Program-made: the position numbers and the translations under genes
Origin: a virus
Lineage: Duplodnaviria > Heunggongvirae > Uroviricota > Caudoviricetes
DNA length: 30,163 nucleotides
IMG/VR virus record: IMGVR_UViG_2850796239_000002
Strand: one strand, 5' to 3'
Shown here: in pieces, positions 22,724-23,512 of the stretch
Position numbering within the stretch: position 1 is the first letter of the stretch
How the letters are laid out: each line of letters begins with the position of its first letter
The notes under the pieces: generated by a model
The model's input: the letters and a program-made list of their open reading frames with translations, nothing else
What the model was told of the DNA's origin: nothing
Database searches by the model: none

Positions 22724-23512
22724 TTAATCTATTTCAAAATAACGTTCAATATTATATGCATTTTCAAAGAGTGTCATATCCTTCTTTTTTATTAGTTTAT
22801 CAGCAAAGATGTCATACTCTTTCGCATTCTGGAGCTCTTTATCAACAGGCATATCCTCTGATTGCATACCGCCATACATACCTTTGGGGCCATATCTGAC
22901 TAAATGTGTTAATTCATGGCAAAGTGATGAAACTTTAGAATCCTTTCCTGTCATTGGTTTACATACAAACCGCTGGCCTATTCTTATTGTCACTACATCT
23001 ACATATTTGTCTGGAGAAACACCTATAATATGATCAGGGGTGACGTTAGCAGTATAAGCATCATTGTCCGTAGAATTTACAAAATTGCCACACTTCCACT
23101 TAGTAACATCTTTATCATAGTAATTATCATTACTATCAAGATATCTATCCCTAAAAGTAACTTCTCTGCACTCCCCTTTATCAGCAGATAATTTATTACA
23201 TATCATTTTCATTCTGTCCACGGCTTCTTGAATAACTGCTCGCGCACTTTTTGTTTCTTTTGTTACTTCTCCGTTCAGTTTAAATTTTATGGTTATTATT
23301 TTTTCAGATGGCACGCCAAATATCCTCCTGAATTCCTCTTCTGCTTCATCATTCCAGTGCGTTAACGTTTCTACCCTTTTATCAATTACCTTTTTTTGTT
23401 CCTCTAGAGATTCCTTCATCATTTTCTTGAATTGATTCGTAACTTGAAATTCCTGTATGCATTGTTCAGTTTTCTGATTTTCACCACTTGAACTACCTCT
23501 ATCATTACTCAT
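22724..23512 (-). CDS. Putative zinc-metallopeptidase-like T6SS cargo effector (HExxH motif), 262 aa
   Basis: Start overlaps the vgrG stop by 8 bp; contains SSLCHELTHLVRYG (HExxH); strongly AT-rich relative to vgrG. Confidence 0.5.
   Translation of the reverse strand: MSNDRGSSSGENQKTEQCIQEFQVTNQFKKMMKESLEEQKKVIDKRVETLTHWNDEAEEEFRRIFGVPSEKIITIKFKLNGEVTKETKSARAVIQEAVDRMKMICNKLSADKGECREVTFRDRYLDSNDNYYDKDVTKWKCGNFVNSTDNDAYTANVTPDHIIGVSPDKYVDVVTIRIGQRFVCKPMTGKDSKVSSLCHELTHLVRYGPKGMYGGMQSEDMPVDKELQNAKEYDIFADKLIKKKDMTLFENAYNIERYFEID

Follow-up and report, generated by a model that had tools for sequence, protein, structure and literature searches.

The window analysed here is a stretch of 30,163 nucleotides from a Caudoviricetes record in IMG/VR (IMGVR_UViG_2850796239_000002). 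It contains a vgrG pseudogene, a 262-aa open reading frame (ORF) that follows it and a further gene downstream, flanked by insertion sequence (IS) elements and prophage genes (Table 1). The 262-aa ORF, hereafter the effector gene, is the subject of this study. As stated in an initial annotation made from the DNA letters alone, the gene is AT-rich; it lies on the minus strand and has a GC content of 0.345 as compared to 0.576 for the vgrG body, the gene downstream having 0.313. The AT-rich block begins within vgrG, the final ~245 nt of which have a GC content of 0.35. The annotation had also placed the start of the gene 8 bp inside the 3' end of vgrG. Indeed, the ATG (23510-23512, minus strand) and the TAA of the vgrG fragment ORF (23505..24992) overlap by 8 nt in ATGAGTAA, and a strong Shine-Dalgarno sequence, GGGAGG, is located 5 nt 5' of the ATG (preceding sequence TTGGGAGGCGTGC). 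The protein has 4 His only and carries, as annotated, exactly one HExxH motif at residues 199-203 (H199-E200-L-T-H203, SSLCHELTHLVRYG). From the composition of the protein 0.0055 such motifs are expected, and 0.43% of 200,000 shuffles contained one. The annotated lack of a PAAR or Rhs domain holds in Pfam. NCBIfam returned no meaningful match for the effector, and scanning its surroundings for promoters and terminators gave no useful signal in such AT-rich DNA.

The same gene is found in intact type VI secretion system (T6SS) clusters. The complete T6SS-1 of E. coli G3X16-2 has the gene order tssB-tssC-tssK-tssL-ompA-like-hcp-tssH-vgrG-(262 aa)-(308 aa)-(404 aa)-tssM-tssA-PAAR-x-tssF, and E. 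coli 21AR0173 has three vgrG-cargo-immunity modules in tandem between tssH and tssM, the effector gene being in the third. The gene thus occupies the place of a cargo effector, directly 3' of vgrG and followed by an immunity gene, with an intact T6SS-1 around it in both strains. Of 5426 complete E. coli genomes, 197 have the gene, in every case in single copy and on the chromosome. Relatives with 29-35% identity (loci L002 and L005) keep the order of vgrG, 8-nt overlap, effector and a secreted protein of ~290 aa. Both the effector and the immunity gene of the window are intact and 99.2-99.4% identical to their copies in intact clusters.

A counterpart of this locus has been investigated experimentally in E. 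coli PAR, where, according to PMC10673891 (Commun Biol 2023;6:1195), AKO63_2953 encodes VgrG, AKO63_2954 'DUF2345', AKO63_2955 'M35PAR' and AKO63_2956 the immunity protein. M35PAR expressed from the periplasm-targeting vector pET22b was toxic to E. coli BL21, and growth was restored by co-expressed AKO63_2956. Toxicity and its neutralisation by the downstream gene, proposed as checks in the initial annotation, are therefore on record for the orthologue. Co-precipitation was seen between M35PAR and the DUF2345 fragment; between M35PAR and VgrG it required the presence of that fragment. We mapped the primers of Supplementary Table 4 of that paper to the window. The effector forward primer (23489-23512) and the DUF2345 reverse primer (23505-23527) match exactly. 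For the effector reverse primer there is a match with one indel at 22724-22748, and the immunity reverse primer aligns at 21725-21746 with five substitutions, the last six residues, LYSSMQ, being the same in both versions. These matches make the effector of the window the orthologue of the experimentally tested AKO63_2955.

The order of vgrG, effector and immunity gene is the same in both loci. Sequence differences of the PAR allele lie in the intergenic region and the immunity gene (4-5 mismatches per primer), and the window has lost the surrounding T6SS genes. The published VgrG-R primer reads CTA where the window has CTG (24258-24278), which corresponds to a change of CAG (Gln) to TAG. Judged from this primer, the separate 'VgrG' and 'DUF2345' genes of PAR appear to have arisen from one vgrG that a nonsense change cut in two; the vgrG of the window is split instead by three 1-bp deletions. 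The pair has accordingly been described before, as an effector of the M35 class and its immunity protein from an E. coli T6SS. This removes the novelty claimed by the initial annotation, as does the newer RefSeq name of the gene, 'M35 family metalloendopeptidase'. The other half of that claim, a zinc-peptidase T6SS effector, is supported by the tested orthologue, by the synteny with vgrG and by the family matches described below.

Profile searches place the effector, which had initially been left without a named family, in the aspzincin M35 family (PF14521). The Pfam model matches the effector itself with E=0.0017 (19.3 bits) and six of ten family members, the best with E=8.1e-6. A single-sequence search of the PDB returned 1g12 (peptidyl-Lys metalloendopeptidase, E=0.013) and AsaP1 (2x3a, E=0.69). 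With a family profile these values improved to 4.8e-4 and 2.7e-3, respectively, and there was no other meaningful match. Homologues fall into nine clusters of 29-95% identity from E. coli, Salmonella, Buttiauxella, Rahnella and metagenomes. An exhaustive search with the family profile over 1.84 billion representative proteins gave 22 clusters (at 50% identity) with E<1e-30, which make up the enterobacterial subfamily, 44 with E<1e-10 and at least 150 with E<1e-3. It reached many true PF14521 proteins at E values of 1e-12 to 1e-4, and of the more distant matches nine were sampled, every one of which proved to be a bona fide PF14521 domain with 69-99 bits. Several of the distant PF14521 relatives are fused to T6SS carriers, namely Hcp (P0045), VgrG (P0076, P0050) and PAAR (P0064). 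The Tox-MPTase models named in the initial annotation did not match significantly; one of 10 members touches Tox-MPTase2 with E=0.033. Full-text searches of the literature gave nothing relevant that joins the names aspzincin, PF14521 or lysine-specific metallo-endopeptidase to type VI secretion; the name M35 led to PMC10673891.

Residues H199, E200, H203, D220 and N251-A-Y-N-I-E-x-Y-F-E260 are invariant in an alignment of 10 homologues with 37-95% identity, the C-terminal helix motif of the effector itself being N251-AYNIERYFE-260. MAFFT aligned the effector with six bona fide PF14521 domains collinearly from the N-terminal helices through the C-terminus. The matched positions comprise W53, F61, F65-G66, G189, S192, the HExxH, which pairs with that of the aspzincins, D220 and the C-terminal NAxNxExY helix. 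D220 falls on the Asp of GTxD and is thus the predicted third zinc ligand. We propose that zinc is held by H199, H203 and D220 and that E200 acts as the catalytic base. An HMMER pairing of NAKEYDIFAD with NADNHEYFSE of 1g12 was dropped, as the invariant NAYNIERYFE aligns with NADNxEYY of closer, T6SS-linked M35 domains. The structure prediction likewise yields a model with an aspzincin fold, in answer to the annotation's call to look for a zincin fold. On the strength of these comparisons we regard the effector as a divergent aspzincin.

The divergence is considerable. Identity to the aspzincins 1g12 (Grifola frondosa), deuterolysin (1eb6) and Aeromonas AsaP1 (2x3a) is 16-22% only and, unlike these, the effector has neither secretion signal nor propeptide, as befits export by a T6SS. 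As compared to canonical M35 proteins, the loop from HExxH to Asp is 8 residues longer and two beta-hairpin insertions are added (about residues 72-89 and 116-146). The full GTxDxxYG consensus is absent: the effector reads QSEDMPVD at this site and close relatives G-T-D-D-M-P. At the positions that form the acidic S1' pocket (NADNxEYF), which gives M35 enzymes their Lys specificity, the Glu is kept as E256, and the Asp position is occupied by Y253, a Tyr that is invariant in the subfamily. The Asp of NADNxEY (D154 in GfMEP) helps to bind the substrate Lys. With Y253 in its place, strict Lys specificity may not apply.

The cognate immunity gene encodes a protein of 308 aa from the GTG at 22651, or of 304 aa from the ATG at 22639 chosen by RefSeq. 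It belongs to no Pfam or NCBIfam family and has 4 Cys, two of which are invariant among homologues. Its N-terminus, judged by eye, reads as a Sec-type signal peptide (MFLTNTSR-FLFLFLM-HKNKLYA, followed by YD). A word-indexed search for homologues gave 2 clusters; more distant ones were recovered from the genomic context of the effector relatives. The downstream proteins of these relatives (~284-318 aa) are mutually homologous at 32-33% identity, have the two invariant Cys in common and possess N-termini in which a basic residue precedes a hydrophobic stretch and an invariant Ala; we take this, again by eye, as a Sec signal. In the immunity gene, the region that encodes the signal peptide consists of a (TTTTTA)n hexanucleotide repeat (22598-22620, minus strand; compared with L001 9990-10030). 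The repeat is two units shorter than in E. coli G3X16-2, whereby FLFLFLFLFLM is reduced to FLFLFLM. The shortened core could impair export of the immunity protein.

The C-terminal part of VgrG is encoded by the ORF 23505..24992 (Phage_base_V, T6SS_Vgr and DUF2345, with a match to TIGR01646) and ends in an AT-rich tail. The last ~60 residues are conserved in L002 (4679-5008) and L005 (2-331), even where the VgrG body differs. The VgrG body of L002 has Gp5_trimer_C and no DUF2345 hit, yet the tail is present. The tail travels with M35-like cargo genes. Its conservation, together with the break in composition inside vgrG, suggests that the mobile unit consists of VgrG tail, effector and immunity gene. 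The 'DUF2345' construct of PMC10673891 takes in this tail. The tail is the likely loading site, and it may be the effector-specific loading module in place of DUF2345, to which loading was ascribed in that paper.

Together, these findings are explained best if the effector is an M35-fold zinc endopeptidase carried non-covalently as cargo by the spike of the E. coli T6SS-1, of which the window holds a stranded remnant; we consider this very probable. The effector would be translated from the vgrG transcript by way of the overlapping junction and its own Shine-Dalgarno sequence. It would bind the C-terminal part of its cognate VgrG, as published for the orthologue (PMC10673891), with the AT-rich tail of ~60 aa after DUF2345 as the proposed specific determinant of loading. 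Fired into neighbouring Gram-negative cells, as the locus implies, it would be toxic in the periplasm, where toxicity is published for the orthologue in the same source. There H199, H203 and D220 would hold zinc and E200 would activate water, and an envelope protein or peptide would be cut. The producer would be protected by the downstream secreted protein of ~300 aa, for which neutralisation is published there and the signal peptide is predicted. At the present locus the pair may persist mainly through the usefulness of the immunity gene.

Several observations weigh against this explanation. The Pfam score of the effector is below the gathering threshold of 30 bits, and from GTxDxxYG only the Asp is retained. 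The effector model is of moderate confidence (mean predicted local distance difference test, pLDDT, 65), and the loop that contains D220 (residues 205-229) has a pLDDT <50, which puts the geometry of the zinc site beyond the reach of the model. A Foldseek search of the model against the PDB found nothing (best E 0.47). The immunity signal peptide was assigned by eye and has a hydrophobic core of 7 residues in the window, and the structure prediction of the immunity protein from a three-sequence alignment (pLDDT 31) is unusable. Finally, no demonstration of peptidase activity, zinc dependence, a substrate or T6SS-dependent secretion of the effector was found in the passages of PMC10673891 that were consulted.

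Table 1. Genes and other features of the window, with the basis of each assignment
Feature	Coordinates	Strand	Basis or remarks
M35-like (aspzincin) zinc-metallopeptidase, probable T6SS cargo effector, 262 aa	22724..23512	minus	orthologue of E. coli PAR AKO63_2955 ('M35PAR')
vgrG pseudogene (Phage_GPD, Phage_base_V, T6SS_Vgr, DUF2345)	23505..26018	minus	Pfam, alignment; three 1-bp deletions
AT-rich vgrG 3' end, tail of about 60-80 aa after DUF2345 (...EFNAKFLFTDDDGLPYANTKYIACFSDGTQKEGITDENGYTENF...IDVRLLNQNIDMILGGVHE)	23505..23750	minus	GC 0.35, conservation
Cognate immunity gene, orthologue of AKO63_2956	21725..22651	minus	primer match, gene order
Remnant of the 404-aa membrane protein found between immunity gene and tssM in intact clusters	20829..21470	minus	two fragments (85 and 121 aa), truncated, frameshifted
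IS66-family element	TnpC 16828-17790 and 17730-18428; TnpB 18448-18795; TnpA 20221-20775		TnpC split
IS4-family copy nested inside the IS66-family element	18977-19600 and 19603-20199		frameshifted
IS4-family transposase, 407 aa	26889-28112		intact; same as nested copy
ORF of 153 aa between IS4-family element and vgrG start	26182-26643	minus	GC 0.31; no Pfam/NCBIfam match
Overlapping AT-rich ORFs, 205 and 296 aa	28454-29071, 29061-29951	minus	no family match
Mu-like myovirus prophage tail module and IS3-family integrase-domain ORF	1-13470, 13971-14789		adjoins T6SS remnant

The initial annotation had noted that vgrG is frameshifted and had wondered whether the effector was a fossil or an orphan toxin. 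Aligned to the intact gene of E. coli G3X16-2, the vgrG of the window lacks single bases at three separate sites, namely columns 247, 311 and 801 of alignment A2 (positions of about 25785/84, 25722/21 and 25233/32). These deletions split the gene into the ORFs 25701-26018, 25112-25693 and 23505-24992 and, since they sum to -3, leave the N- and C-terminal fragments in the same frame. Sequencing error is disfavoured as their source: of the three deletions only one affects a homopolymer, and IS elements abound in the rest of the locus, which makes real decay the more likely cause. Within the window there is no tssH or hcp upstream and no tssM, tssA or tssF downstream. In place of the latter, the remnant of the 404-aa gene is followed by the IS66-family element with its nested IS4-family copy and then by the Mu-like prophage. 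Upstream, where E. coli 21AR0173 has the adjoining vgrG module, there are the 153-aa ORF and the IS4-family transposase and, farther out, the cargo pair that belongs to the preceding module. As vgrG is frameshifted and the core genes are replaced, the intact toxin-antidote pair can probably not be delivered from this locus.

It is somewhat more probable than not that the gene is here a decaying relic, the toxin being neither loaded nor fired and selection acting at most on the immunity gene. The state of vgrG, the loss of the T6SS core to IS elements and prophage and the truncation of the adjoining 404-aa gene all point this way, as do the codon differences between the effector gene and its copy in G3X16-2, four of which (out of six) are non-synonymous. 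Six substitutions are, however, too few to infer relaxed selection. Moreover, the ORF is of full length and highly identical to its copies in intact clusters, neither the ribosome-binding site nor any invariant residue has been lost, and another T6SS or a compatible VgrG could exist beyond the 30-kb window. Decay at this locus bears on the status of the gene here, not on the identity of the protein. With vgrG broken and the T6SS core replaced, but both genes of the pair intact, toxin and antidote are most aptly described as a remnant left orphaned. The retained immunity gene would still protect against E. coli with a live system.

Other members of the fold suggest two further functions. The effector could be a non-proteolytic zinc binder, comparable to the zincophore Pra1, or a protease directed against eukaryotes, comparable to AsaP1, rather than an antibacterial toxin. 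This is very unlikely. The Pfam family behind the first suggestion is named for HRXXH, whereas the catalytic Glu of HExxH is invariant here, and the effector gene is always paired with a gene for a homologous signal-peptide protein. In addition, the orthologue kills E. coli from the periplasm and is neutralised by its partner (PMC10673891). A different VgrG-linked E. coli protein, the 'M35-peptidase' of module 5 in the bovine-mastitis strain BCE049, is also toxic to E. coli only in the periplasm (PMC7904677; Front Vet Sci 2021). It resembles the effector in its link to VgrG, its M35-like label and its periplasmic toxicity, and it differs in that its locus is an orphan and its VgrG groups with T6SS2. 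A search for this protein by way of P0004, a relative with 35% identity to the effector, gave no match among the complete E. coli genomes.

Least probable, with hardly any chance of being right, is membership of the effector in the metallopeptidase family of the P. aeruginosa VgrG2b C-terminal domain and A. baylyi Tpe1, as implied by PMC10673891, which equates AKO63_2953, 2954 and 2955 with the VgrG, DUF2345 and 'M35' domains of VgrG2b (PA0262): the present data do not support equating M35PAR with VgrG2b, as no sequence or fold match was found between the effector and VgrG2b or Tpe1, and neither DUF4157, a Glu as third ligand nor similarity to 6H56 is seen in the effector. VgrG2b and Tpe1 are of the DUF4157 class, with Glu as third zinc ligand and thermolysin-like structural homologues (PMC6899460). 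The likeness is one of function: VgrG2b is an HExxH metallopeptidase that is delivered by a T6SS, is active in the periplasm of the prey and is neutralised by a periplasmic immunity protein (PMC6899460), and the effector orthologue is likewise a periplasm-active HExxH toxin with a periplasmic immunity protein. The C-terminal domain of VgrG2b is fused to VgrG, whereas the effector of the window is free-standing. With the effector an aspzincin and not of the DUF4157 type, lipoprotein release and blebbing at the division site as known for VgrG2b are not simply transferable to it.

For the M35-fold cargo effector we tentatively suggest a more specific picture, which we consider possible and by no means probable. 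The enterobacterial subfamily would be an aspzincin with a re-tooled pocket, in which the invariant Tyr replaces the Lys-binding Asp and the ligand loop is longer, and would cut a specific envelope protein; loading may proceed via the VgrG tail and not via DUF2345. If this is true, the envelope protein that is cut would be a new antibacterial target and the published VgrG2b equivalence a misassignment. As a candidate for the specificity determinant, the short tail of VgrG that is inherited with the cargo is preferable to DUF2345. On a practical level, names can be given to two 'hypothetical' genes, one for an M35-family T6SS metallopeptidase effector and the other for its immunity protein, and the locus can be interpreted as a T6SS-1 cargo island in decay. 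None of these points will surprise T6SS specialists.

Some of the flanking features can be traced to other genomes. The overlapping 205-aa and 296-aa ORFs correspond to the cargo and immunity genes that E. coli 21AR0173 has in its preceding vgrG module. The 153-aa ORF, perhaps an orphan immunity gene or cargo borne by an IS element, lies in a stretch outside the region of the window that matches E. coli G3X16-2. The prophage tail module comprises genes for the sheath, a DNA-circularisation protein, a baseplate protein like gp44/GpP and the N-terminus of a tail fibre. This Mu-like prophage is 98% identical to prophages of a few E. coli genomes.
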